A DNA stretch of 64,000 bases, from the IMG/VR virus record IMGVR_UViG_2852055501_000011, positions 20,357-84,356 of that record; one strand, written 5' to 3'. This DNA comes from a virus (Duplodnaviria; Caudoviricetes). Positions 2,892-21,567 of this stretch are shown here, piece by piece (position 1 is the stretch's first letter; every line of letters starts with the position of its first letter). The notes below the pieces were generated by a model that worked only from the letters and a program-made list of their open reading frames with translations, did not search any database and was not told where the DNA came from. The position numbers were made by a program, and so were the translations under genes.

Positions 2892-3188
2892 CTATTTTTT
2901 TATCCTCTCCGCTTCAATCTCCCGTATTGCCCGCTTATCGTGATTACAGCCCGCTATCGACTTCATTGCATCGGCCAACAACAGGATTGCGCCGCCGTAT
3001 GTCAGTTCATCCGGAATAACCGGCAGCGGACAATCAGCCGTCAGTTGTGGCGGGATCGGCACCACCGGCGCGGGCACGAATGTCTCTTTCGTATTGCTGC
3101 AACTTCCCAACAATGCCAGGGGAAACAGGAGTAACAGCGCACTCACTGTCTTTAAACTCCGTTCTGATAACGGTTTTAACTTTGACAT
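2892..3188 (-). CDS. o-spanin (Rz1-like lipoprotein)
   Basis: Lipobox-like LLGSC, Pro-rich, overlaps the 3' end of the i-spanin; start chosen at MSKLK. Confidence 0.8.
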   Translation of the reverse strand: MSKLKPLSERSLKTVSALLLLFPLALLGSCSNTKETFVPAPVVPIPPQLTADCPLPVIPDELTYGGAILLLADAMKSIAGCNHDKRAIREIEAERIKK

Positions 3189-3411
3189 TCTCCGTGCCCT
3201 CCGTTTCTTTGGCTTTGATGTTGTCGAGTGCGGCGCGGTGTCTGATGGCAACGGCTGAAAGCGTAATGGTGTTTATCGTCCGCTGTGCTGACAGTTGTCC
3301 GGACAACGTTGTGTTATTCACCTTCAGCTGCTGGTTATCCCGGTAGGTGTCATATACCCACCAGGCGGCAACAATAAACAGCGCGGCAATTACCGTTTCT
3401 TTCCAGTTCAT
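3034..3411 (-). CDS. i-spanin (Rz-like)
   Basis: N-terminal TM helix then helical periplasmic domain, downstream of the endolysin. Confidence 0.8.
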   Translation of the reverse strand: MNWKETVIAALFIVAAWWVYDTYRDNQQLKVNNTTLSGQLSAQRTINTITLSAVAIRHRAALDNIKAKETEGTENVKVKTVIRTEFKDSECAVTPVSPGIVGKLQQYERDIRARAGGADPATTDG

Positions 3412-3566
3412 GGCGCTTCACACTCATAACAGATCACACCGTCCAGCGGGTTACCCGGCAGCGGCTTACAGTGATTCGGGAGTGAATACAGATAACAACC
3501 CGCCAACAGAGCAGTAGTCAGCAGGATGATAGCAATGATGATCAGTGTTAAAGGGTTCCGTGGCAT
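3408..3566 (-). CDS. Small predicted lipoprotein (52 aa) between endolysin and spanins
   Basis: [30 protein letters not shown]...CYECEAP; GGAG RBS upstream; TGA overlaps the Rz ATG; conserved in prophage B. Confidence 0.7.
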
Positions 3567-4024
3567 ACCGCTTTCTCCGTTTCGCGCCGGTTAATCAGAC
3601 CCTGCCACTGCTTACCACCGGCAAATGTCCAGCGTTTCATTTCGTCACAGGCACCCGCGATATCACCGGCATTGAGTTTGCGCAGCATTGTCGAACGCGA
3701 GAACGCACCGGTTCCGGTGTTATATGCAAATGAATAGATGGCCGCCCGGCTATTGTCATCAATCGGCACTTTGATCATCGGGTCAACCGCGCGCCGGACT
3801 TTCGTCAGGTCGTCATGCAGCAGCGCCTTACATTCAGCGTCCGTGTACAACTTGCCGGGCTGAATATCACTGCCGGTATGGCCATAACATACGGTAAGCA
3901 CTCCGGCCACATCACGGTAAGGTTTGTACTCAACACCCTCATACGCGGGGATCAGCACCAGCGCTCCGGCAATCGCCCCGGCGGCACAAGCGGCCATGAC
4001 TTTTTTAAATAATCGGTTATTCAT
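3548..4024 (-). CDS. SAR endolysin (GH24 lysozyme)
   Basis: Ala/Gly-rich N-terminal SAR helix; [21 protein letters not shown] catalytic motif. Confidence 0.95.
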
Positions 4025-9532: not shown

Positions 9533-9774
9533 CAGATAACCCCCTCACGCAGGTAGTGCTTCACCTTGTGGCGAATCAGGGTGTACTCATCTCTGATATT
9601 AAAAAAGTCAGCGATATCAGGTCGGCCACGTAAGCATTTGATTGCCAGGTTGCGCAAATGCCAATCCTTACGAATATCGCGCAGTACCCACCACCGACGG
9701 ATCTGATGCTGGACGGCCAGAGCCGGGAACACACTCACGCCATAAATTTCTTTGCTTTCTGAGCGCATGTTCAT
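9532..9774 (-). CDS. Hypothetical protein
   Basis: 80-aa ORF translationally coupled between rep and the methyltransferase. Confidence 0.55.
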   Translation of the reverse strand: MNMRSESKEIYGVSVFPALAVQHQIRRWWVLRDIRKDWHLRNLAIKCLRGRPDIADFFNIRDEYTLIRHKVKHYLREGVI

Positions 9775-10655
9775 GCTGTCTCCCGTTCTTTGGCGGCCTG
9801 CTCTGTGGCCTGTTTCCAGTACCCGCGAAATGCTGCTCGTCCGGCAATTTCATTCATACGCCCAATGTAGGATTTGTGTTTTGCGACCAGCTCCTGTACG
9901 CGGTTTTCTGGCTTCCAGTCGGAGGATGAGAACATTTTTCTGAAGACTTCATCGCACTCGGTGGTGTCGATGTTCTTTGAGTCCGCAGCGCGTTTAAATC
10001 CGGCGGCCGTATTCAGCCAGTATCTGAAACCGGCATTCCAGTCAGCGTATTGGGTACCCTTGCTGGCGTGGTAGTCGCTGAATTTCTGAAACTCGTCCTG
10101 AATATCCAGACCGGCGGCTTTGGCCTGATCGGTGTGTTCTGGTGTCGGAACAAAGTTTTCCGGCATCACGGTTTTGCTTTTGGTTTTTCCGCGAACAGGA
10201 TTAATATTTTTATTTTCTGGATCTATGACTGGATCATTACTGATTCTGGGTGCAGCTCCTGCACCACTATCGGAACCAGTTGCACCACCTGGTGAATCTG
10301 CTGCACCAGTCCCGGAACCATTTGCACCACTCACCCCCGCAGGATTTGCACCATATGGTGCAGCAGATTCACCACTCACAACGACAGCATTTAAACGCAG
10401 ATGATAGATATTTGACTGGTTCAGACCGTTGGCCGATTTCCGGGACTCAACACGAACCAACCCCATTTCCACCAAGGCGTTAATGTGGTTTTGCACTGAC
10501 CGCTCTGACATTTCGCACTGCTCAGCAATGTACGGCACAGACGGCCACGATTCGCCCTGGTCGTTGGCGTTATCCGCCAGCTTTACCAGTACCAGTTTGC
10601 GCAGCGCGTTGCCGGTTTTTATCTGCAAAGCCCGCGCAGTTAAAATCATACTCAT
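9771..10655 (-). CDS. Replication initiator with N-terminal HTH
   Basis: KLVLVKLADNANDQGESWPS..IAEQCEMSERSV; internal GA-rich repeat region. Confidence 0.9.
   Translation of the reverse strand: MSMILTARALQIKTGNALRKLVLVKLADNANDQGESWPSVPYIAEQCEMSERSVQNHINALVEMGLVRVESRKSANGLNQSNIYHLRLNAVVVSGESAAPYGANPAGVSGANGSGTGAADSPGGATGSDSGAGAAPRISNDPVIDPENKNINPVRGKTKSKTVMPENFVPTPEHTDQAKAAGLDIQDEFQKFSDYHASKGTQYADWNAGFRYWLNTAAGFKRAADSKNIDTTECDEVFRKMFSSSDWKPENRVQELVAKHKSYIGRMNEIAGRAAFRGYWKQATEQAAKERETA
10250..10375. repeat. Origin iterons within the rep gene
   Basis: Repeated TGCACCA/TGCAGC units next to an AT-rich tract. Confidence 0.7.
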
Positions 10656-11092: not shown

Positions 11093-11590
11093 TCACCCTT
11101 TCTTCCGGTAAATCTTCCGGTAAATTTCGATAAGCGAATGCCTGTATTCAGTTTCTGCGGCAATGCACCGGTTATGTTTCCTGATAATCTCAATAGCTTC
11201 TTTTTCATCGATATACCCGTCATTCGAAATTGATTCCCCGATACACATGCTCAGAGCGGCCTTTCTTTGGTCTACCCTCATACGCAGGTCATGCAGCTCA
11301 ACACTGTCCAGTGCCCCGGCATCCGGCTTTTGGTATGAAACACGGCCTATACGCTCATTGAAGTAATCAGCTAAAAATTTCTCTTCTGACAGATCCTCCA
11401 GTGTTTCCAGCTGACCCAGCGTGAAATAACCGGTACCGTTTTTTTCGTTAAAGCGATTACGGAACGCGGGTAATCTGATATTCAGAATGGCCGCCAGGGC
11501 TTCATGACCGCCTGGGTAACTTTCCACAAAGTCAGAAACCCGTTGCTTAAGATCCACAATTGGAATTTCTTTCGGTAATTTGTTCTTCAT
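11093..11590 (-). CDS. YmfL-like/CII-position regulatory protein
   Basis: YPGGHEALAAILN..FRNRFNEK; immediately downstream of cro. Confidence 0.7.
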   Translation of the reverse strand: MKNKLPKEIPIVDLKQRVSDFVESYPGGHEALAAILNIRLPAFRNRFNEKNGTGYFTLGQLETLEDLSEEKFLADYFNERIGRVSYQKPDAGALDSVELHDLRMRVDQRKAALSMCIGESISNDGYIDEKEAIEIIRKHNRCIAAETEYRHSLIEIYRKIYRKKG

Positions 11591-11838: not shown

Positions 11839-11933
11839 CCCCTTAGGTATTAGTAAAGTTAGATGTTATGGTATTAGTTATCTTTTATCAATAAAAAATA
11901 AGATAGGTTATGTATTGTCTAAGTGAGGTTAGG

Positions 11934-12566
11934 ATGGAGACTGTAGGAAGTAGAATAAAGAGACTAAGGAATACAACGAAAACAACACAGGTTGAGCTCG
12001 GCAAGTTCTGTGGTGTATCAGGCGTAGCGGTCGGCTTTTGGGAGAGGGATTTAAATCAACCAAGCGGTGATGCACTAATTAAGTTAGCGCAATTTTTTAA
12101 CACAACAGAACCGTATATTTTGTACGGAATACCGTCAAAGCATGCTGAAAATGTCATAACAACAATGCGAAAAATCCCTGTAATATCATACGTGCAGGCT
12201 GGATTATTTACTGAAAGTATTCCTGAAGATATATATAATGACGCACTTGAATACCTTGAGACATCAATAAAAACATCACCATCAAGTTTTGCCCTTATTG
12301 TAAAAGGTGATTCTATGACAAACCCTTCCGGTTCACCATCCATACCGGAGGGAGCAAAAGTAATTGTAGACCCAGAGGCGGAAGTCGTTAACGGGAAAAT
12401 TGTCGTAGCCCGCCTTGATGGAACAAGCGAAGTGACGATAAAAAAACTAGTAATAGATGGCCCGAGTAAATTTCTATCCCCCCTAAACCCCCGCTACCCA
12501 AACATTTCCATTAACGGAAACTGCCTAATCATTGGGGTTGTCCGTGGTGTACAATACGAACTCTAA
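11934..12566 (+). CDS. CI-like repressor (HTH plus S24 peptidase)
   Basis: HTH, VQAG cleavage site, GDSM catalytic Ser, TIKKL catalytic Lys. Confidence 0.95.
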   Translation: METVGSRIKRLRNTTKTTQVELGKFCGVSGVAVGFWERDLNQPSGDALIKLAQFFNTTEPYILYGIPSKHAENVITTMRKIPVISYVQAGLFTESIPEDIYNDALEYLETSIKTSPSSFALIVKGDSMTNPSGSPSIPEGAKVIVDPEAEVVNGKIVVARLDGTSEVTIKKLVIDGPSKFLSPLNPRYPNISINGNCLIIGVVRGVQYEL

Positions 12567-12879: not shown

Positions 12880-13099
12880 CGGCTGCGTATCTGAATAACT
12901 GTGTGAAGAGTAAACGACCCCACAACAATAACCATGCAATACCATTAGCGGCCGTGCATAACGCGGTGCAGTCCACCAGCCGGCCGCCGTTTTTTACAAA
13001 CATAAGTCCACCGGCGTAAATCGTCCTGCCGGATAGATACCTTGCCTGACCGCTGGTGGACTTATCTTTGTGTGAAGAGACAACGAAAGGAAAAACGCA

Positions 13100-13462
13100 A
13101 TGAGCGAGAATAACCGCATGACCAGTGTACCGGACTTTCTCTCCGAGTTAGACGCCGGTGTGTTTGAAAACAAACTTTCTGCTGCACTGAATGAAGTCGC
13201 TTTTGGTACCAATAAGAACGGCGGTACTGGTGAAGTACACGTGATTTTTAAATTCACTCAGTCAGATGAAGACCGCGTGAAAATATCTCACAAACTGAAA
13301 ATGGTTACACCGACTAAGCGCGGTAAAAAATCGGAAGAGGATACAACCGAAACACCGATGTGGGTCGGTAAAGGCGGGAAACTCACTATTCTACCGGAAG
13401 ACCAGGGGCAGTTATTTGGTATTGACGGCAGTATCGACGGGAAATTAAAAGCCATTAATTAA
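13100..13462 (+). CDS. YfdP-like phage protein
   Basis: VPDFLSELDAGVF..PTKRGKKSEEDTTETPMWVGKGG; precedes the DUF2303 gene. Confidence 0.8.
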   Translation: MSENNRMTSVPDFLSELDAGVFENKLSAALNEVAFGTNKNGGTGEVHVIFKFTQSDEDRVKISHKLKMVTPTKRGKKSEEDTTETPMWVGKGGKLTILPEDQGQLFGIDGSIDGKLKAIN

Positions 13463-13527
13463 TTTCCACTTTTTAAATAAATCATTCCATTTACTTTTTA
13501 TGTTTTTAATTAAACAGGAGTCTTTTT

Positions 13528-14355
13528 ATGTCTAATTTAGACGGAACCGCTATTTCTCAGATTCAGAATATGGCCGTTGCTTCATTAAGTCTGGACGCTG
13601 TAAATAAATCCCTCTGCCCTGCTGTGGTTTTACCGGGTGATTTCAATGTTAAAAGCCTGGAGCACTTACAGGAAGGTCGCTATCGCTTCCGTGGTGCGAT
13701 GGATACAACCAGTATCACTGACTTTGTGAAGTATTCCCTGCAACACGGTGTTGAGGAAGGTGTCAGCTGCTTTATTGATGCTGATGAAATGGCCGCTAAA
13801 ACCATCTTTAATATCGGTTCCATCGGTGAGCCTGGGCATGCAGATAATACAGCCACTGTATCACTGAAAAAGACATCGCCTTTTGCATCACTGCTGAATG
13901 TTAACGGCCGCCGTCAGGGTCAGAAAGAACTGGCGGAATGGCTGGAAGACTGGCGCGATAACCTGATGGCATTTGATGCAGAAGGTAATGTTATTGATAT
14001 TAAGCAGGCAATCAATGCTGTGCGCAAAATCACCATTGAAGCAAGCCGCTCCGCAGATCATGAGGACCGTGATTTTGGTGCCAGCCGCTCCGTAATGGAA
14101 AGCGTGGAAGCAAAAAGCCGTGACATCATGCCTGCTGTATTTCAGTTTACCTGCACACCATACGATGAACTGTCTGAACGTGCTATCAAACTGCGTTACA
14201 GCGTTCTGACCGGTGGTGATGTACCTGTGCTGGTACTGCGTATTGTTCAGCTGGAAAAACTGGAAGAACAAATCGCCCAGGAATTCCGTGATCTGCTGGC
14301 TGATAAATTCGAAGAAACCGAAATTCAAACCTATATCGGTAAATTCAAAGCTTAA
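13528..14355 (+). CDS. DUF2303 (YfdQ-like) protein
   Basis: RYRFRGAM..GHADN..QKELAEWLEDW. Confidence 0.88.
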   Translation: MSNLDGTAISQIQNMAVASLSLDAVNKSLCPAVVLPGDFNVKSLEHLQEGRYRFRGAMDTTSITDFVKYSLQHGVEEGVSCFIDADEMAAKTIFNIGSIGEPGHADNTATVSLKKTSPFASLLNVNGRRQGQKELAEWLEDWRDNLMAFDAEGNVIDIKQAINAVRKITIEASRSADHEDRDFGASRSVMESVEAKSRDIMPAVFQFTCTPYDELSERAIKLRYSVLTGGDVPVLVLRIVQLEKLEEQIAQEFRDLLADKFEETEIQTYIGKFKA

Positions 14356-14453
14356 TTATTTTATGCCGCTTTAACCGGCGGCATTTCTACTGCCAACACC
14401 AGAGAATAAGTTAGTTTAATAAAATATAGAATCTTTATTACATAGAGGCCTCC

Positions 14454-14681
14454 ATGCCTGAACAAAAAAAACAAAGCGTTAAAATGATTATTACTGTGGC
14501 ATTAGGTACCCCACCCACTATTAACGTTGATGTACAGAATGAACTTCATATTAATGAAGAACAACCTCTTACAAAATATTTCTTAGAAAGAGTTAGTGAA
14601 TATATTTCCGGCAAAGAAGCAATAACGAATGCAATAACAAAAGCCGCACAAGATACTCTGACAAAAAGAAATATACACTAA
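14454..14681 (+). CDS. AT-rich hypothetical protein
   Basis: GAGG RBS, 75-aa ORF. Confidence 0.5.
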   Translation: MPEQKKQSVKMIITVALGTPPTINVDVQNELHINEEQPLTKYFLERVSEYISGKEAITNAITKAAQDTLTKRNIH

Positions 14682-14723
14682 AAAATAATGGCTTTTTATT
14701 ACCTAAATTGTGTGGAGAGATAA

Positions 14724-15446
14724 ATGTTATATATATCAACCAGTACCGGAAAACATATTGATTTCGTCAATATCACTCCGGATCAGATTTGTATCGAAGA
14801 TATCGCGCGCGGTCTGTCGAATGAATGCCGCTTTGCCGGGCAACTGGAAAGTTTCTATTCCGTGGCTCAGCACTCTGTATATGTCAGCCAGATTGTGCCG
14901 CCGGAATACGCACTGGAAGCGCTGCTGCACGATGCCGCTGAGGCGTATATCAAAGATATCCCCTCACCGCTGAAAGCCATGCTGCCGGACTACAAGGCCG
15001 TGGAAAAACGCATTGAAGCGGTTATCCGTGAAAATTTCGGCCTGCCGCCGGTAATGACAGTTGATGTTCACTATGCCGATCTGGTCATGCTGGCGACCGA
15101 AAAACGGGACTTTGAAATAGACCCCGGCGGCCACTGGCCGATGCTGGATTCAGCCCCACCACATGATGACATCATTATCCGGCCACTGACACCGCCGCAG
15201 GCATATCACCAGTTTATGGCCCGGTTTGAAATCCTAACAAGAGGTGATTCATTTCCAGAGATACTAGAGCTTGGCCTCAGTGTGCGGGCTGCAAATTGCC
15301 TTAAACAGGCAGGGATAGTAACAACAGGGCTGTTACTGAAAGAAACAGAAGTAAACCTCTTAAGAATACCAGGAATTGGGAGTCAGATACTCAGAGAAAT
15401 AATTGAATCGATAAAACCATTCGGACTTAAGTTAAAAAAAGGATAG
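14724..15446 (+). CDS. YfdR-like HD-domain nucleotidase fused to an RNA polymerase alpha-CTD-like domain
   Basis: RFAGQ..YSVAQHS..LLHDAAEAY; C-terminus ELGLSVRAANCLKQAGI..TEVNLLRIPGIG aligns by eye with RpoA DLELTVRSANCLKAEAI..TEVELLKTPNLG. Confidence 0.85.
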   Translation: MLYISTSTGKHIDFVNITPDQICIEDIARGLSNECRFAGQLESFYSVAQHSVYVSQIVPPEYALEALLHDAAEAYIKDIPSPLKAMLPDYKAVEKRIEAVIRENFGLPPVMTVDVHYADLVMLATEKRDFEIDPGGHWPMLDSAPPHDDIIIRPLTPPQAYHQFMARFEILTRGDSFPEILELGLSVRAANCLKQAGIVTTGLLLKETEVNLLRIPGIGSQILREIIESIKPFGLKLKKG

Positions 15447-15451
15447 TAATA

Positions 15452-16021
15452 GTGAATAAATTCAAACATCTGATGATTGATCTTGAAGTTATGGCTAAAA
15501 AGCCGGATGGCGCTATAGCAGCTATTGCGGCTGTACCGTTCGATATGGTTTCCGGTGTAACCGATGATGCGCTTTTTTATGAGGTGGTCGATCTGCGTAG
15601 TAGTGCCGGATTGGGCGGAAGTATCGACGCTGATACCGTGCTGTGGTGGCTGGGTAAAAGCGATAATGCCCGTGGTGAAATCATTAATAGCGAAAAGGCC
15701 ATTGAACTGCCTGACGCACTGCTCGGCCTCAGTTCATTCGTTTCTGAGTTCTGTGGAGAACAGGTTCAGGTATGGGGTAACGGAAGTAGTTTCGATAACG
15801 TTATTTTGCGATCAGCTTATGAAAACTGCGGGATAACTCCGTTCTGGAAGCACTGGAATGACCGGGATGTGCGCACCATTGTCGAACTTGGCCGCAATGC
15901 CGGCATCGACCCGAAAAAAGATTTCCCGTTTGTTGGTGAAGCACACAATGCACTGGATGATGCATTGCACCAGGTGAATTACGTGGTCGCAATCCACCAG
16001 CATTTATTAAAAAACCTCTAA
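15452..16021 (+). CDS. DEDDh 3'-5' exonuclease (phage exoribonuclease family)
   Basis: MIDLE, WGNGSSFD, RDVRT, HNALDDA motifs. Confidence 0.9.
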   Translation: MNKFKHLMIDLEVMAKKPDGAIAAIAAVPFDMVSGVTDDALFYEVVDLRSSAGLGGSIDADTVLWWLGKSDNARGEIINSEKAIELPDALLGLSSFVSEFCGEQVQVWGNGSSFDNVILRSAYENCGITPFWKHWNDRDVRTIVELGRNAGIDPKKDFPFVGEAHNALDDALHQVNYVVAIHQHLLKNL

Positions 16022-16051
16022 TCGTATACGGCGATGTGTGGAGAGAAGATT

Positions 16052-16240
16052 ATGAATACTGAACCGACAAGATACATAAAAATGAAGGAAATGATTTCTC
16101 TGACGGGAAAAAGTAAACCGACACTGTGGCGGATGTACGCGAAACGAAACGAGTTTCCGAAGCCGGAAAGAACGAAAGGCGGGACTTTTTTGGGATGGTC
16201 TGAAACTGTTTATGAGGATTGGGTCAGGAGTGAAAAATAA
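16052..16240 (+). CDS. AlpA/TorI-like excisionase (recombination directionality factor)
   Basis: MKEMISLTGKSKPTLWRM..FPKP..LGW; last gene before att. Confidence 0.85.
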   Translation: MNTEPTRYIKMKEMISLTGKSKPTLWRMYAKRNEFPKPERTKGGTFLGWSETVYEDWVRSEK

Positions 16241-16316
16241 AATACTAACTAGACCCGTTACTTAACCCGCTTTCTGGCGGGTTTTCTTTCCCCGTTATAT
16301 AACTTATTGATTTATA

Positions 16317-16361: not shown

Positions 16362-16432
16362 AGCGTAGAATTAATCCTTTGTAATCAATTAAATATGGAA
16401 GTAACCAGTGTTCACGCACCATTTCCATAATG

Positions 16433-16499
16433 AAGTTGTTCAAAGTCGTTCTATGTCATTTCAAGTCATTTTAGTTTATCCGCCCCATTTCCGCCCCAT
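16433..16499. promoter_or_regulatory. att arm: four 10-bp-phased repeats and two integrase arm-type sites
   Basis: AAGTTGTTCA/AAGTCGTTCT/ATGTCATTTC/AAGTCATTTT then TCCGCCCCAT twice; similar CGTCCCA repeats at 63934-63973. Confidence 0.6.
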
Positions 16500-16551
16500 C
16501 ATACAATCCCCCTGCTATACTCCCATCATCACCCACCACTCCGAAACCAAC

Positions 16552-16776
16552 ATGCACAACATCGCCAACCTACCCCAAGACGAAAAAGACAAAATTAATG
16601 CCGATTTAGCCGCATCCGGTATCGCGTACAAAGAAAGACTCGGACTGCCGTATGATCTGTACGAAACAGAAAACCAGCAGCCCGAGCATTTACGCCCGTA
16701 CTTCAGAGAGAGGCTGGAGCACTACAGGGAGATCGGGAAAAGGTTTCCGCGCGGGTTCGAGTATGAGAAGGAGTGA
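16552..16776 (+). CDS. DNA polymerase III theta subunit homolog (HolE/HOT-like)
   Basis: NIANLPQDEKDKINADLAASGIAYKERL..QPEHLRPYFRERLEHYR. Confidence 0.88.
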   Translation: MHNIANLPQDEKDKINADLAASGIAYKERLGLPYDLYETENQQPEHLRPYFRERLEHYREIGKRFPRGFEYEKE

Positions 16777-16853
16777 TCATGTCACGTTCATGCTGACCTA
16801 TCTTGACAGGAATGGTAAACTCACGCATAAATTTTCGTTATGCATGAGACAAA

Positions 16854-17216
16854 ATGATTCAGTTGTTTTATAAATACTTCTCTGTTGGTGTTATCAACAC
16901 CCTGCTCCATTGGGCTGTCTTTGCCGTACTGGTCTACTTAGCCAGCACAACACAGGCGACAGCTAACCTGATTGCGTTCATTGTCGCTGTCACCTTCTCG
17001 TTTTTTGCCAACGCAAAGTTCACTTTCAAGAAAAAGGCTACCGGTGGCCGCTATGTAGCCTTTGTAGGGTTCATGGGTGTGCTTAGTTACCTGACCGGCT
17101 TCATCGCGGATAAAGTCAATGCCGCACCTATTATCACCTTGGTGGCGTTTTCAGCTATCAGCCTGGTGCTCGGATTTCTTTACTCAAAATTATTTGTTTT
17201 TAAAGGCATGGAATAA
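16854..17216 (+). CDS. gtrA: Bactoprenol-linked glucose translocase
   Basis: 120 aa, four TM segments, [22 protein letters not shown]. Confidence 0.95.
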
Positions 17217-18130
17217 TGAAAATATCATTAGTCGTCCCGGTATTTAATGAAGAAGAAGCAATACCTATCTTCTACAAAACTGTCCGTGAAAATGAAGAAC
17301 TAAAAAAGCATGAAGTCGAAATCATCTTCATCAATGACGGCAGCAAGGACTCAACAGAAAGTATCATCAATGCACTGGCTATTGCAGACAGCCTGGTTAA
17401 GCCACTGAGCTTCACGCGTAACTTTGGCAAAGAACCCGCTCTGTTTGCTGGCCTTGACCACGCTACTGGCGATGCAGTTATTCCTATTGATGTTGACCTG
17501 CAAGACCCTATCGATGTTATCCCTGTTCTCATTGAGAAATGGCAGGAAGGCGCTGACGTTGTTCTGGCAAAACGCACAGACCGATCAACCGATGGGTGGT
17601 TAAAACGTAAAACCGCCGAGTGGTTCTATAAGCTGCACAATAAAATCAGCACACCGAAAATCGAAGAAAATGTTGGTGATTTCCGGCTGATGTCACGCGA
17701 AACGGTAGAAAACATCAAGCTGCTGCCAGAGCGTAACCTGTTCATGAAAGGTGTTCTGTCATGGGTCGGCGGTAACGTTGATATTGTGGAATACACCCGC
17801 GCCGAACGATCAGCAGGTGAATCGAAATTTAATGGCTGGAAGCTGTGGAATCTCGCACTTGAAGGCATCACCAGCTTCTCCACTTTCCCGCTCCGTATGT
17901 GGACATACATCGGCCTGTTTGTTGCCGCGCTGTCATTTGTGTACGGAGGATGGATGATCATCGATAAACTCATATGGGGCAACCCTGTGCCTGGATATCC
18001 GTCACTGCTTGTGTCTATTTTGTTCCTTGGTGGCATCCAGTTAATCGGGATAGGTGTGCTTGGTGAGTATATTGGACGTATTTACACTGAAAGCAAAAAG
18101 CGTCCTAAATATTTGTTGAAAAGGAAGTAA
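17216..18130 (+). CDS. gtrB: Bactoprenol glucosyltransferase
   Basis: [22 protein letters not shown]2 with two C-terminal TM segments. Confidence 0.97.
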
Positions 18131-18131
18131 G

Positions 18132-19559
18132 ATGATGCAATTCGCAAAAAACTGTAAAACATCAGCTATTATCTTATGTATGTATATGATACCAATTTTT
18201 ATATTTGGAACATACTACAGAGATGATAACGGAAGAGTTGTATCTCAATATTTTGGATGGGATGAGGACGGTCGCCCGCTGACAAACATCATAATTAAAT
18301 TTTTAAATTTTGGAGGCAGACTTACAGATTTAGCGCCGATGTCGCAAATACTTTCTATCGTAATATCAGCAATAACATGCGGCATCATTTGCTCTTTTGT
18401 CATTAAAAACAATAGATTATCAGTAGTGATATCTACTACATTCCTATTCTTAAGTCCATTTTATTTACAAAATATTATATATAGGTTCGACGTTGTAACA
18501 ATGGCAATATCAATTCTATTTGCCGCCATACCATTTTTATTTATCAAGATACAGAATATATATGCACACATGCTGATATCATTCATATCGGTGATATGTT
18601 TACTATCAACATACCAAGCATCACTTCCGGTTTTTTACTCTCTGCTGCTACTTTCGTTTGTATTTAATGGTGATGTTAAAATAAACATATGCAGAGCATT
18701 ATCTGGCGCGGCATCTTTATTTGTATATTACTTCATAATATCACCAATGTATGTTGGCGGTGAATATGCAAAATACAGAGCAGAATCAATAGATACAAAA
18801 TCAGAAAGTGTCATAAATTCGGTGATACTTAATTTTTCAAATCTATTTGATAATTTGCATGTTATTATAAATTACAAGTTTTTTGTTATATTCTCTATGG
18901 TGCTAGCAGCACTATTAATTAAATCAACATACTATTTAATCAACAACAAAAATAATTTAAAAGGATTTATTTTATTTTCATTTTTCTTATTAGCATTTAT
19001 GTTTTCATTTGGCATATTCTTTTTATTGAAGAAACCAGTCTATGAACCAAGGGTAATGATTGGAATAAATGCCATCATAATGATGATAAGTATTGCAGCG
19101 GTGAGCGGTTGGGATAGAAGGCTGTGCAATGTTTATAGTATTATATCTATCATCCCACCATTATTATTCTTTTTCTCTATGGCAACAAATTATATAAATG
19201 CAAGTAATGCATATGTTAAATATGAAGAAGACACCATCCGCTCGATGTACTATGACTATAAAAGATTAGATATGTCAGGAGTAGCATACATTGATGGTTA
19301 CCTATTACCTCCATACATAACAGAGCAGATCTTAAATGAAAAACCATTTTTGAGGAATATTGTCGGAAGCCGTATTGGTGGTCTAACATCATATCTCAGT
19401 AAATCAGACTTTCCTTTATTTAATTTTTCAGCCAGTGATAAGTCAATCGACAGCATTGTTTCATGTGGTGAAATATTATCACCGTATAATGGCGTATACA
19501 CAACAATCAGGATTGATGATAAAAATTATTTTTCATTAAAGGAAGTAAATTGTAAATAA
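18132..19559 (+). CDS. Serotype-specific O-antigen glucosyltransferase (GtrC/GtrII-like)
   Basis: Low GC, polytopic membrane protein, YYRDD..GW..DGRPL..YQ motifs; third gene of the gtr operon. Confidence 0.85.
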   Translation: MMQFAKNCKTSAIILCMYMIPIFIFGTYYRDDNGRVVSQYFGWDEDGRPLTNIIIKFLNFGGRLTDLAPMSQILSIVISAITCGIICSFVIKNNRLSVVISTTFLFLSPFYLQNIIYRFDVVTMAISILFAAIPFLFIKIQNIYAHMLISFISVICLLSTYQASLPVFYSLLLLSFVFNGDVKINICRALSGAASLFVYYFIISPMYVGGEYAKYRAESIDTKSESVINSVILNFSNLFDNLHVIINYKFFVIFSMVLAALLIKSTYYLINNKNNLKGFILFSFFLLAFMFSFGIFFLLKKPVYEPRVMIGINAIIMMISIAAVSGWDRRLCNVYSIISIIPPLLFFFSMATNYINASNAYVKYEEDTIRSMYYDYKRLDMSGVAYIDGYLLPPYITEQILNEKPFLRNIVGSRIGGLTSYLSKSDFPLFNFSASDKSIDSIVSCGEILSPYNGVYTTIRIDDKNYFSLKEVNCK

Positions 19560-19599: not shown

Positions 19600-21567
19600 T
19601 TACTGCGTACATATTATCTCTATCCCAAACTCACACCCATTAGGCATATCAGATGGCCTGACAAGCTCCTGTGATGAGTTGTTTATTATATAGAAAAATG
19701 CTTTTCCTGATGATGATGGAGACTGATTATAAAACGGTATTAGCGTATATTTAAACCCATTTGACTGGTTATAAGACTGCGTAAATATATATGGAGCCCA
19801 AGAACCAATACCCTTTTCATATTCAACAACTAATGCAAACGAGTCACTTTCGCTAACCATTACCGACTTAATACCCATAGGCAAGTAATATGATCTATTA
19901 ATTATAAATGACCCGTCTTTTTTAAAGATATGACATAACCTCCTTAATCCTACCGCGTTAACTTCTTGAGATGTATTTTTGGGGATGTAGATATTGCTGA
20001 AACCATTAAAATTTATTTCTGACGGTTTTAAATTTGTCTCAATTCTGTTATCTCGCCCATCAGCCCCCTTAACGTCGACAAGGTACTGACCTTGATTTCC
20101 ATAATATGAATAGTCCCAAATGTATGAAGTGATATTATTAGCGCCTGCCCCATCTATCATAAGAGCCCATATACTTGTATCAGTCCATTGCTGAATATAA
20201 TCTATTTCCAAATTTGCTATCTGAGTATAGTACGCGTACTTCCCTGATGTTTTTGGTATGCACTTTAAAACAGGCCCATAGTTCCCTTTTATGACCAAAT
20301 TCTTAAATGTACATGCCGTAATCCAGTTTGTGACAACTTTATATTCAAATGCATCTGTTGGCTCATAAACTTCAATGACGAGAGTATACTCCCCCTCTTC
20401 AAGATTAAGGTTATCAAAATGACACCAACAGATTGAGTTTTGCTTTCTGGCAGGGTCATTGGTTCCATCCATGACGTTATTGCAGCGAATTTTTAGAGCT
20501 GTTCCACTTCTGTCTGAATAATTTGGAATTAGTCTGACACCATCAATATTCAAATTACGAAGATTGTTTTTACCCAATACAAGGGCGACGTTATGATTCC
20601 ATGCTTTCAACGGAGTATCTACTGCAATGCGACCACCGCCTATTTTTTCAGATTTAAAAAATAGGTTATCCGTTTCAAATACAAACATATCATCACGTAA
20701 TGTTCTGTTGATTATCTGAGCGCCAGATTTAAACAGAAAATTCTTTTTGACATTTATTTTTTTGTTACAGTCAAATGAATAGCCAGGAATAACTACTGTC
20801 TTGATTCTGGAAATATCCTGCATTGATACAAGAATGCTGCCAATGTCAGTATCACGTACAGCGCCAACAGTTCTGATATCAACATCCCCGTAGGTTAACA
20901 TAGACGCCGTTAACCCATTGCTCAATGCAATATCAATGATGCCATTGGCTGCAGCGTTGGTTACTGTATACTCAGCCTCCCCACCATCATTGATCGTGTA
21001 ATATCCGCGTGTTTTAACCGTTGCCCCAAGTGGCAGTGATGTTTCCGCTACCATTTCAGCGACATTATCGAAGACGCGAAGGTAGTTTTCAGTCAGGCCA
21101 CCAACAAAGGTGAACCCGTTATCCGCTTTCAAATCAGTTCTCAGGTTAGCTCCGCCGATATCAATCCACGCCCCTTTGCCGATACCACCTGTTGATTCGG
21201 GAGTTGAGCCAGCCGGAACAACCTTAGGCAAATCACCATCCCAGCGATAATATTCACCGGTGGTTTCATCACGCAGAATCTGATTACGCTGGGTGATCTC
21301 ATTGTCTGGCAGTTGCGCACCCTGCTGGAAACTATCAACGGTGATGTAACCAGCTGAAATTATTGCCTGATTCATATCGACTTTGAATCGCAAAACAAGC
21401 TGGTCGAACATCCACTTCATGCCTTCGATAGTCATATGGCAGCGGCCAAACCGGTCTTTATATTCGTGTTCCAGCGATGTCACGAACTCGTCAATTTTGC
21501 CTGAGTTAAATTTCAGGTCGCGCGGTGCTTCACTCGGTACTGCATTTTGAGTAGGGATAGTAGCCAT
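19600..21567 (-). CDS. Tailspike/receptor-binding protein
   Basis: Conserved N-terminus MATIPTQNAVPSEAPRDLKFNSGKIDEFVTS, YYRWDG..PK, KTRGYY..DGG; low-GC beta-helix-like C-terminus. Confidence 0.88.
   Translation of the reverse strand: MATIPTQNAVPSEAPRDLKFNSGKIDEFVTSLEHEYKDRFGRCHMTIEGMKWMFDQLVLRFKVDMNQAIISAGYITVDSFQQGAQLPDNEITQRNQILRDETTGEYYRWDGDLPKVVPAGSTPESTGGIGKGAWIDIGGANLRTDLKADNGFTFVGGLTENYLRVFDNVAEMVAETSLPLGATVKTRGYYTINDGGEAEYTVTNAAANGIIDIALSNGLTASMLTYGDVDIRTVGAVRDTDIGSILVSMQDISRIKTVVIPGYSFDCNKKINVKKNFLFKSGAQIINRTLRDDMFVFETDNLFFKSEKIGGGRIAVDTPLKAWNHNVALVLGKNNLRNLNIDGVRLIPNYSDRSGTALKIRCNNVMDGTNDPARKQNSICWCHFDNLNLEEGEYTLVIEVYEPTDAFEYKVVTNWITACTFKNLVIKGNYGPVLKCIPKTSGKYAYYTQIANLEIDYIQQWTDTSIWALMIDGAGANNITSYIWDYSYYGNQGQYLVDVKGADGRDNRIETNLKPSEINFNGFSNIYIPKNTSQEVNAVGLRRLCHIFKKDGSFIINRSYYLPMGIKSVMVSESDSFALVVEYEKGIGSWAPYIFTQSYNQSNGFKYTLIPFYNQSPSSSGKAFFYIINNSSQELVRPSDMPNGCEFGIEIICTQ

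Follow-up and report, generated by a model that had tools for sequence, protein, structure and literature searches.

A two-domain gene in a Morganella prophage

The stretch of DNA analysed here (the window) comprises 64,000 nucleotides, positions 20,357 to 84,356 of the IMG/VR provirus record IMGVR_UViG_2852055501_000011, which holds 84,356 bases. An open reading frame (ORF) at window positions 14724-15446 on the plus strand encodes a protein of 240 amino acids, in which an HD phosphohydrolase is followed by a domain of the type found at the C terminus of the RNA polymerase alpha subunit, RpoA (the alpha C-terminal domain, alpha-CTD or CTD). The gene is predicted to encode a two-domain early protein of a lambdoid Morganella prophage, and HD-alpha-CTD is a new domain architecture assembled from two known families. 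The parts of the gene are as follows.

14724-15239, plus strand: YfdR-type HD phosphohydrolase domain, residues 1-172, assigned from PHROG, identity to YfdR and fold
15240-15269, plus strand: junction and flexible linker, approximately residues 173-182 (RGDSFPEILE), where the cassette starts
15258-15413, plus strand: alpha-CTD-family (HhH)2 domain, the core matched by Pfam PF03118, residues 179-230
15241-15446, plus strand: complete alpha-CTD cassette with its TAG stop codon (15444-15446), delimited by base composition and by colinearity only with the IMG/VR loci L004 and L005
15434-15440, plus strand: A7 homopolymer shortly 5' of the stop codon of the fusion ORF

The HD domain is of the YfdR type

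The initial annotation had placed a YfdR-type HD domain in the first ~175 residues, and this assignment holds. The PHROG family phrog_318, annotated as deoxyribonucleoside 5' monophosphate phosphatase, matches residues 1-174 (E = 7.3e-87), and E. coli YfdR is 56.4% identical to residues 1-172 (blastp, E = 3.6e-70). The Pfam family YfbR-like (PF12917) scores 23.7, below its cut-off of 25.9, so that the assignment rests on PHROGs, the direct comparison with YfdR and the fold; PF12917 is assigned in the precomputed table to a diverged allele of the fusion, P0007, and to several relatives. In the AlphaFold2 (AF2) model of the full-length protein, the predicted local distance difference test (pLDDT) is 83-97 per block of ten residues over residues 1-170, and the best fold match of the HD part in the PDB is the HD protein Atu1052 (2gz4, E = 1.4e-9). 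Across 50 aligned homologues, H50, D70 and D119 are invariant and H69 and E73 are at least 90% conserved. All of these residues are present in the window protein, and because of this conservation the site formed by H50, H69-D70, E73 and D119 looks intact; the HD part is predicted to be a metal-dependent phosphohydrolase of the YfdR type with an intact HD motif.

The phrog_318 annotation relates the domain to the phage T5-type deoxyribonucleoside 5'-monophosphatases, a name that should be taken for the window protein as a family label only. E. coli YfdR, a product of the cryptic prophage CPS-53 (KplE1) that is annotated as a 5'-deoxynucleotidase, shares the intact HD motif, but is a protein of 178 amino acids that lacks the C-terminal domain. 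Genes annotated yfdR give DNA matches in 2,953 of 5,426 complete E. coli genomes, and none of these 5,426 genomes has a match covering at least 80% of the fusion query.

The C-terminal domain belongs to the alpha-CTD family

The last ~65 residues had been likened to the CTD of RpoA. The Pfam search bears this out, with RNA_pol_A_CTD (PF03118) matching residues 179-230 at 48.8 bits against a cut-off of 23.8 (E = 5.7e-13) and spanning positions 14-65 of the 67 in the profile; a search on the window's own record gave 51.4 bits. Among the 59 matches at E ≤ 1 in a phmmer comparison with PDB sequences, the top 51 are RNA polymerase alpha subunits, led by 9zum_A (E = 1.1e-9), and this closest solved sequence is that of an alpha-CTD crystallised on AT-rich DNA. 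Confidence in the CTD was low in the full-length model, and the domain was therefore refolded alone with a deeper alignment (residues 165-240, 23 rows), which raised the mean pLDDT to 80.2. All 50 of the Foldseek PDB matches listed for this model are RNA polymerase alpha-subunit structures, either the isolated CTD or the whole enzyme, with a TM score (target) of up to 0.86-0.87 and a root-mean-square deviation (rmsd) of 0.6-1.0 Å; the best are E. coli alpha-CTDs, at 0.6-0.9 Å over 59-61 columns and 41-42% identity. On profile and model evidence, the C-terminal ~65 residues are predicted to form a true alpha-CTD-type domain of two helix-hairpin-helix motifs, (HhH)2. No PHROG family matches the CTD alone at E ≤ 0.01. 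NCBIfam also aligns the CTD weakly to BREX PglW.

The protein is not RpoA. The NCBIfam rpoA models reach 28-47 bits on the fusion protein against cut-offs of 228-523, Pfam finds no match to the RpoA N-terminal dimerisation and assembly domain (RNA_pol_L/RNA_pol_A_bac), and the N terminus is instead the HD domain. Because that N-terminal domain is absent, the fusion protein cannot be a component of the polymerase. Capture of the CTD from the host rpoA gene was considered and rejected, as the CTD of Morganella RpoA is only ~38% identical (76-residue query). The window domain scores 48.8 bits with the Pfam profile versus 88.4 bits for the host's own RpoA, and at 38% identity it is as far from host RpoA as from distant alpha-CTDs. 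The highest single-domain score to any of 1.84 billion representatives, its own cluster excepted, is 40.5 bits, a level equal to that of RpoA.

The domain was joined by cassette exchange

The junction coincides with a change in base composition, as the initial annotation had pointed out in placing it near 15235. The G+C fraction falls from 0.514 at 14724-15239 to 0.401 at 15240-15446, with 0.479 for the whole window, and homology to 20 relatives that are unfused or bear a different extension stops at 15227-15240. The closest phages, Providencia phage PSTRCR_117lys and Morganella phage IME1369_02, are 92-93% identical over residues 1-177, and their HD gene encodes 174 residues ending in ...LTTE or ...LTAE, with other genes next. 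DNA identity of the window to these two phages is high as far as 15240 and lost beyond it. Of 24 related loci, 22 lose homology at 15227-15240, and 15 of those 22 regain it at 15436-15456, at the exonuclease gene that follows; only L004 and L005 are colinear throughout (92.4% over 13000-16061). Since homology stops and resumes at the edges of this interval in the relatives, the alpha-CTD can be described as a cassette of ~205 bp. The slot that it fills is variable, and relatives have different genes or different in-frame C-terminal modules there. Comparison of these loci indicates cassette exchange, at the point where the HD gene ends, as the origin of the fusion.

The cassette has no start codon of its own. 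A Shine-Dalgarno-like sequence, AAGAGGTGA, lies exactly at the junction (15238-15246), and the 40 bases after it contain no in-frame start; it may be the vestige of a gene that was once separate, or may be due to chance. Neither a stand-alone ancestor of this CTD lineage nor another fusion partner was found in protein, IMG/VR, metagenome and genome-contig scans. Four short protein matches to the CTD all begin in the last helix of the HD domain (at M165) or within the CTD itself, two IMG/VR scans with CTD alignments returned only L004 and L005 again, and the metagenome scan with the CTD added a single copy of the fusion to those known, besides six RpoA genes and an unrelated open frame of 147 amino acids. 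The genome-contig scan with the CTD alignment gave no matches, nor did tblastn of the CTD against the 3-kb flanks of unfused relatives.

The exonuclease ORF downstream lies in the -1 frame relative to the fusion ORF, with no stop between them. Two database proteins have altered tails: that of P0009, KLKKDSNSE, is approximately what one A fewer would give, and that of P0158 approximately what one A more would give, running into the exonuclease frame. A programmed -1 frameshift or slippage at the A7 run, which would join HD-CTD to the exonuclease, was set aside; the run is broken in L004 (AAAAAGA), so that slippage is unlikely to be conserved.

Recurrence of the fusion and selection on it

Five full-length protein clusters of 240 or 241 amino acids carry the fusion, with CTD identities of 100, 100, 99, 83 and 72%; one of them is named by NCBI for Morganella morganii, and another is named by UniRef as an alpha-CTD domain-containing protein. 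Where a source gives an organism for these clusters, it is Morganella. In the metagenome contig L061, which begins part-way through the HD domain, the reading frame continues into the CTD. All 45 sampled words of 15100-15560 are contained in 14 DNA runs from 10 studies; each of these runs is flagged as a possible source of the window, and they are for this reason not counted as independent. Contigs in two of the 14 bridge 15051/15068-15800 with zero differences. The junction is also crossed by an RNA-library contig (run X15, 15105-15376), which does not prove transcription. Judged from these sequences, the HD/alpha-CTD fusion is rare but conserved, and so far restricted to Morganella prophages.

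This recurrence bears on whether the fusion is an artefact of sequencing or assembly, or due to the loss of one stop codon in one record. An A7 run does adjoin the stop, and variants with frameshifted tails exist in databases. The junction, however, replaces all downstream sequence rather than introducing a point change, and the same fusion is present in L004 and L005 from IMG/VR, in L061 and in NCBI-sourced Morganella proteins, to which the two bridging contigs and the 14 runs, with their flag as possible sources, can be added. A one-off origin of the kind that the initial annotation had named as its possible undoing does not agree with recurrence in diverged copies, and we regard an artefact as extremely improbable.

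Between the window and L004, the ratio of non-synonymous to synonymous divergence (dN/dS) is 0.16 for HD residues 1-140 (synonymous divergence, dS, 0.10), 0.18 for residues 141-172 (dS 1.7) and 0.29 for the CTD (dS 0.30). The CTD changes number 12.5 at 50.5 synonymous sites and 12.5 at 153.5 non-synonymous sites (binomial p = 0.003-0.01). These values indicate purifying selection on the CTD and, from the high dS of residues 141-172, later recombination of the fused cassette with a different allele of the HD tail. The proposal of a recent in-frame acquisition can be retained as to the in-frame cassette and not as to its recency: with a CTD dS of 0.30 between two fused alleles and a third allele at 72% identity, the fusion is older than 'recent' would imply.

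In runs X7 and X11 the fused allele and a second HD allele occur within the same assembly; the second allele diverges at 15239 (the unfused type) or at 15232 (the type with a ~105-residue module), which suggests two related prophages per genome. Two further variants are P0227, in which HD residues 1-106 run straight into the C-terminal part of the exonuclease, and P0206, a form with the ~105-residue module that lacks HD residues ~108-158. Both suggest prophage decay in some genomes.

Other modules on the HD core

The alpha-CTD is one of several extensions found on this HD protein. Among the best 120 HD protein clusters, 90 are without an extension, whereas a Providencia module of 66 residues is present in 20, the alpha-CTD in six and a module of ~105 residues in four; a fourth module, of ~80 residues and likewise in-frame, occurs in L011. 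The Providencia form, with a total of 238 residues, is the commonest extended form (20 of the best 120 clusters). The other modules match stand-alone PHROG families of unassigned function (phrog_1372, phrog_11960 and phrog_11067). HD forms with other modules comprise:

3001-3840 in locus L008: HD protein with another C-terminal module
3001-3759 in locus L011: HD protein with another C-terminal module
Proteins P0164, P0171 and P0190, and 19 more: HD forms with other modules

The alpha-CTD allele P0007 and P0171, which has the ~105-residue module, share the same diverged HD N terminus, from which it follows that modules have been swapped between HD alleles. That the HD core carries three other C-terminal modules argues for modular domain exchange in the yfdP-yfdQ-yfdR early-left operon.

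Such exchange also raises the possibility of a passenger domain, left at a mosaic gene boundary by illegitimate or homologous recombination: the two domains would fold independently, the HD part would work as it does in unfused relatives, and the CTD would contribute no specific function. At the 3' end of the HD gene, a recombination hotspot, no fewer than four in-frame extensions occur alongside numerous unfused forms; in runs X7 and X11 a second HD allele, unfused or otherwise extended, offers partners for recombination; and the failure to find a stand-alone ancestor or another partner of the CTD lineage points the same way, as do the decayed variants P0227 and P0206 and the short calls from M165. 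Against this, the CTD has a dN/dS of 0.29, alleles as low as 72% in identity preserve the frame, and the fused cassette occurs with two different alleles of HD residues 141-172 (dS 1.7). Retention of the parallel Providencia extension in 20 diverged clusters shows that such extensions can be maintained. A passenger origin appears a fairly unlikely explanation, if one to be taken seriously.

Alpha-CTD domains outside RpoA

A search for alpha-CTD domains gave 2,477 representatives at E ≤ 1e-3, a count that includes RpoA. Of 81 short top matches that were scanned, PF03118 was found in all 81, the RpoA dimerisation domain in three and sigma-70 region 4 in eight. The metagenomic proteins P0008-P0157 contain 2-12 tandem alpha-CTD-like repeats. 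Alpha-CTD domains outside RpoA are thus, as far as profile matches tell, common in metagenomes, and for this reason a CTD alone does not imply polymerase mimicry.

Phages contribute to this set. ORF34 of Morganella phage Mecenats66 (L025 2659-3222) joins NinX (PF10765) to an alpha-CTD that scores 24.6 bits and is 43% identical to the window CTD; like the window protein, it has a C-terminal alpha-CTD on an unrelated phage N terminus, and it shares the PGIG hairpin and the FGLKL end. Mecenats66 also encodes a NinX protein without a CTD (ORF38). Bacillus phage Goe8 c00050 has an alpha-CTD domain (78 bits), and several BFVD entries are named 'RNA polymerase, alpha subunit, C-terminal'. In all of these phage proteins the N-terminal partner is NinX or unassigned, but never HD. 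The initial annotation knew of no characterised example of the fusion, and our searches concur: the literature searched, with most subscription papers outside reach, contained no characterised phage alpha-CTD protein, no HD-alpha-CTD fusion and no study of the alpha-CTD proteins outside RpoA.

A second alpha-CTD match was found in one of 301 genomes of the host's bacterial family. It is a 49-residue open frame in G017 (28 bits) that has no ORF call, and was not accepted as a clear gene; G031, G121 and G201 look as if they have an interrupted or truncated rpoA.

Operon context

The neighbouring genes are listed here.

9771-10655, minus strand: replication gene
11093-11590, minus strand: CII-like gene
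11910-12566, plus strand: CI-like repressor (phrog_4 'transcriptional repressor', E = 1.3e-47)
13100-13462, plus strand: YfdP homologue, 120 amino acids (phrog_204, E = 2.1e-37; 55% identity to E. coli YfdP)
13528-14355, plus strand: YfdQ homologue (DUF2303), 275 amino acids (PF10065, E = 1.3e-67; 54% identity to E. coli YfdQ)
14454-14681, plus strand: AT-rich ORF of 75 amino acids, G+C fraction ~0.30-0.35, no family
15452-16021, plus strand: Rv2179c-like 3'-5' exonuclease, 189 amino acids (PF16473, E = 6.3e-55; phrog_255 'exonuclease', E = 7.6e-70)
16034-16240, plus strand: AlpA/TorI-like excisionase-type ORF, the end of the operon (phrog_66, E = 7.7e-7)

The order yfdP-like gene, yfdQ-like gene, 75-residue ORF, fusion, exonuclease, AlpA/TorI-like ORF, with a CI-like repressor upstream on the same strand, identifies the early-left operon of a lambdoid prophage. 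The Pfam AlpA profile scores 19.1 on the last ORF, under its cut-off of 21. A terminator-like hairpin is located 3' of this ORF (16264-16283), and promoter-like and terminator-like sites are no more frequent than in shuffled sequences. The 75-residue ORF has no Pfam or PHROG match, and its region is itself a variable cassette: many relatives lose homology from ~14425/14445 to 14679, and only L004, L005, L010, L011 and L021 are colinear with the window at 14425-14678. Beyond the excisionase-like ORF, 16408-19559 holds a DNA polymerase III theta-like ORF (phrog_1105) and then a gtrA-gtrB-gtrC-type O-antigen conversion module, in which genes one and three match phrog_2224 and phrog_4829; no integrase was seen there.

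E. coli CPS-53 has the same order yfdP-yfdQ-yfdR, followed by a variable slot and a torI/alpha-like excisionase gene, but its slot holds yfdS and yfdT, whereas that of the window holds the alpha-CTD cassette and the exonuclease. According to one report, E. coli YfdR binds domain I of DnaA, and yfdQ together with yfdR needs yfdS or yfdT to inhibit replication initiation (PMC4776307); among YfdR-type proteins, that of E. coli is the only one for which nucleotidase activity and DnaA binding are known, from the same report. The requirement for yfdS or yfdT fits the idea that sequence downstream of yfdR works with yfdR.

Contact residues and possible roles of the C-terminal domain

The CTD was aligned to that of Morganella RpoA, a protein of 329 residues, and positions are given in E. 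coli numbering. As reference surfaces we take the '265 determinant' for UP-element DNA to be R265, N268, C269, G296, K298 and S299, the '261 determinant' for sigma-70 region 4 to be the acidic patch D258, D259 and E261, and the '287 determinant' for CAP to be T285, E286, V287, E288, L289 and L290 plus G315, R317 and L318. K297, K298 and S299 are important for UP-element binding.

The window protein has R188, N191, C192 and G219 at the positions of R265, N268, C269 and G296, within the motifs S-V-R188-A-A-N191-C192-L and G217-I-G219, so that four of the six DNA-contact residues are retained and the complete set is not. The suggestion that residues matching the UP-element contacts are present, with the motifs VRxANCL and GxG, is correct for these four positions and fails at K297, K298 and S299, which are replaced by S, Q221 and I222. 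The sigma-70 contact patch is lost, with L181, E182 and G184 in place of D258, D259 and E261. In the CAP-contact region, T285, E286, V287, L289 and L290 are kept as T208, E209, V210, L212 and L213, residues that are common across the family, and E288 is replaced by N211; the domain stops near residue 315, and equivalents of G315, R317 and L318 are absent. The equivalent of K271 is kept in the window allele and is E in P0007. Relative to the RpoA CTD (~249-329; PF03118), the window domain is thus alike in fold and in most of the DNA-contact and 285-287 positions, and differs at 297-299, in the acidic patch and in its earlier end.

The likeness invites the idea, raised in the initial annotation, that the CTD is a decoy or mimic, a free CTD that would compete with the alpha-CTD of the polymerase for activators, for the NusA region AR2 or for UP elements; in an alternative form, it would dock the HD enzyme onto transcription complexes and reshape early host or phage transcription. 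The true alpha-CTD fold, with 41-42% identity to the E. coli and ~38% to the Morganella domain, is consistent with such a role, as is the retention of T285, E286, V287, L289, L290 and K271 in the window allele. Second alpha-CTD genes are rare in the bacterial family (one of 301 genomes, and that not a clear gene), and the gene lies in an early operon under a CI-like repressor. Phages target the alpha-CTD by other means, for instance, reportedly, through the Rac protein of phiKMV-like phages (PMC7552054). However, the domain is no recent copy of host rpoA, the sigma-contact patch reads L/E/G, K297, K298 and S299 are replaced, and the domain ends at ~315 without G315, R317 and L318 of the CAP-contact patch. 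T285, E286 and K271 recur across aligned alpha-CTD homologues and so are not specific evidence, K271 is moreover E in P0007, and competition would need high expression. On balance, a decoy seems unlikely.

We tentatively favor a role of the alpha-CTD as a flexible tether of the HD protein to DNA or to a partner, a reading that falls somewhat short of probable. It draws on the partly retained DNA contacts, on the AT-rich DNA in the 9zum crystal, on the wide occurrence of alpha-CTDs outside RpoA, on the NinX fusion of Mecenats66 and on the DnaA link of E. coli YfdR. A flexible linker of 8-10 residues, with pLDDT below 50 for residues 176-181 in the full-length model, would join the HD domain to a complete alpha-CTD-type (HhH)2 domain, which may bind the minor groove and backbone of DNA, probably at AT-rich tracts, through R188, N191, C192 and G219. 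The HD protein would thereby accumulate on DNA in early lytic growth or on induction; a less probable role of the tether would be to hold a protein that normally docks on the alpha-CTD.

Several observations weigh against the tether. With K297, K298 and S299 replaced, and with K at position 265 and R at position 269 in P0007, DNA affinity may be weak or different; the Mecenats66 CTD likewise has K at 265 and R at 269. In the full-length model the CTD reaches a pLDDT of only 46-68, and the model is uninformative on how HD and CTD pack against each other. The fusion occurs in a minority of relatives, two of 19 close IMG/VR relatives and none of three species-representative Morganella genomes, and short gene calls starting at M165 on up to 14 contigs mean that the HD part may be broken in some genomes. 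Since the slot is a general mosaic hotspot, the fusion could also be tolerated rather than useful.

A further possibility, which we consider quite improbable, is that the CTD is a phage stand-in for the alpha-CTD of the polymerase and takes a DnaA-binding HD protein to AT-rich, UP-element-like DNA or to host factors such as CRP-type activators, NusA or a CII-type activator. Were this the case, one small early protein would couple control of replication initiation with interference in activator-dependent transcription, and the exchangeable modules on YfdR-type proteins would be addressing domains that direct one enzyme core to different host targets. If the CTD were instead a decoy, it would give phages a new means of disturbing transcription that depends on activators.

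Enterobacterial prophages very commonly encode YfdR-type HD proteins, and the fusion, together with the exchangeable modules, is a Rosetta-stone hint at action of the enzyme on or near DNA and not on free nucleotides. With hundreds of alpha-CTD domains outside the polymerase in metagenomes and some in phages, the HD-alpha-CTD protein offers a small and tractable case for the role of such domains.

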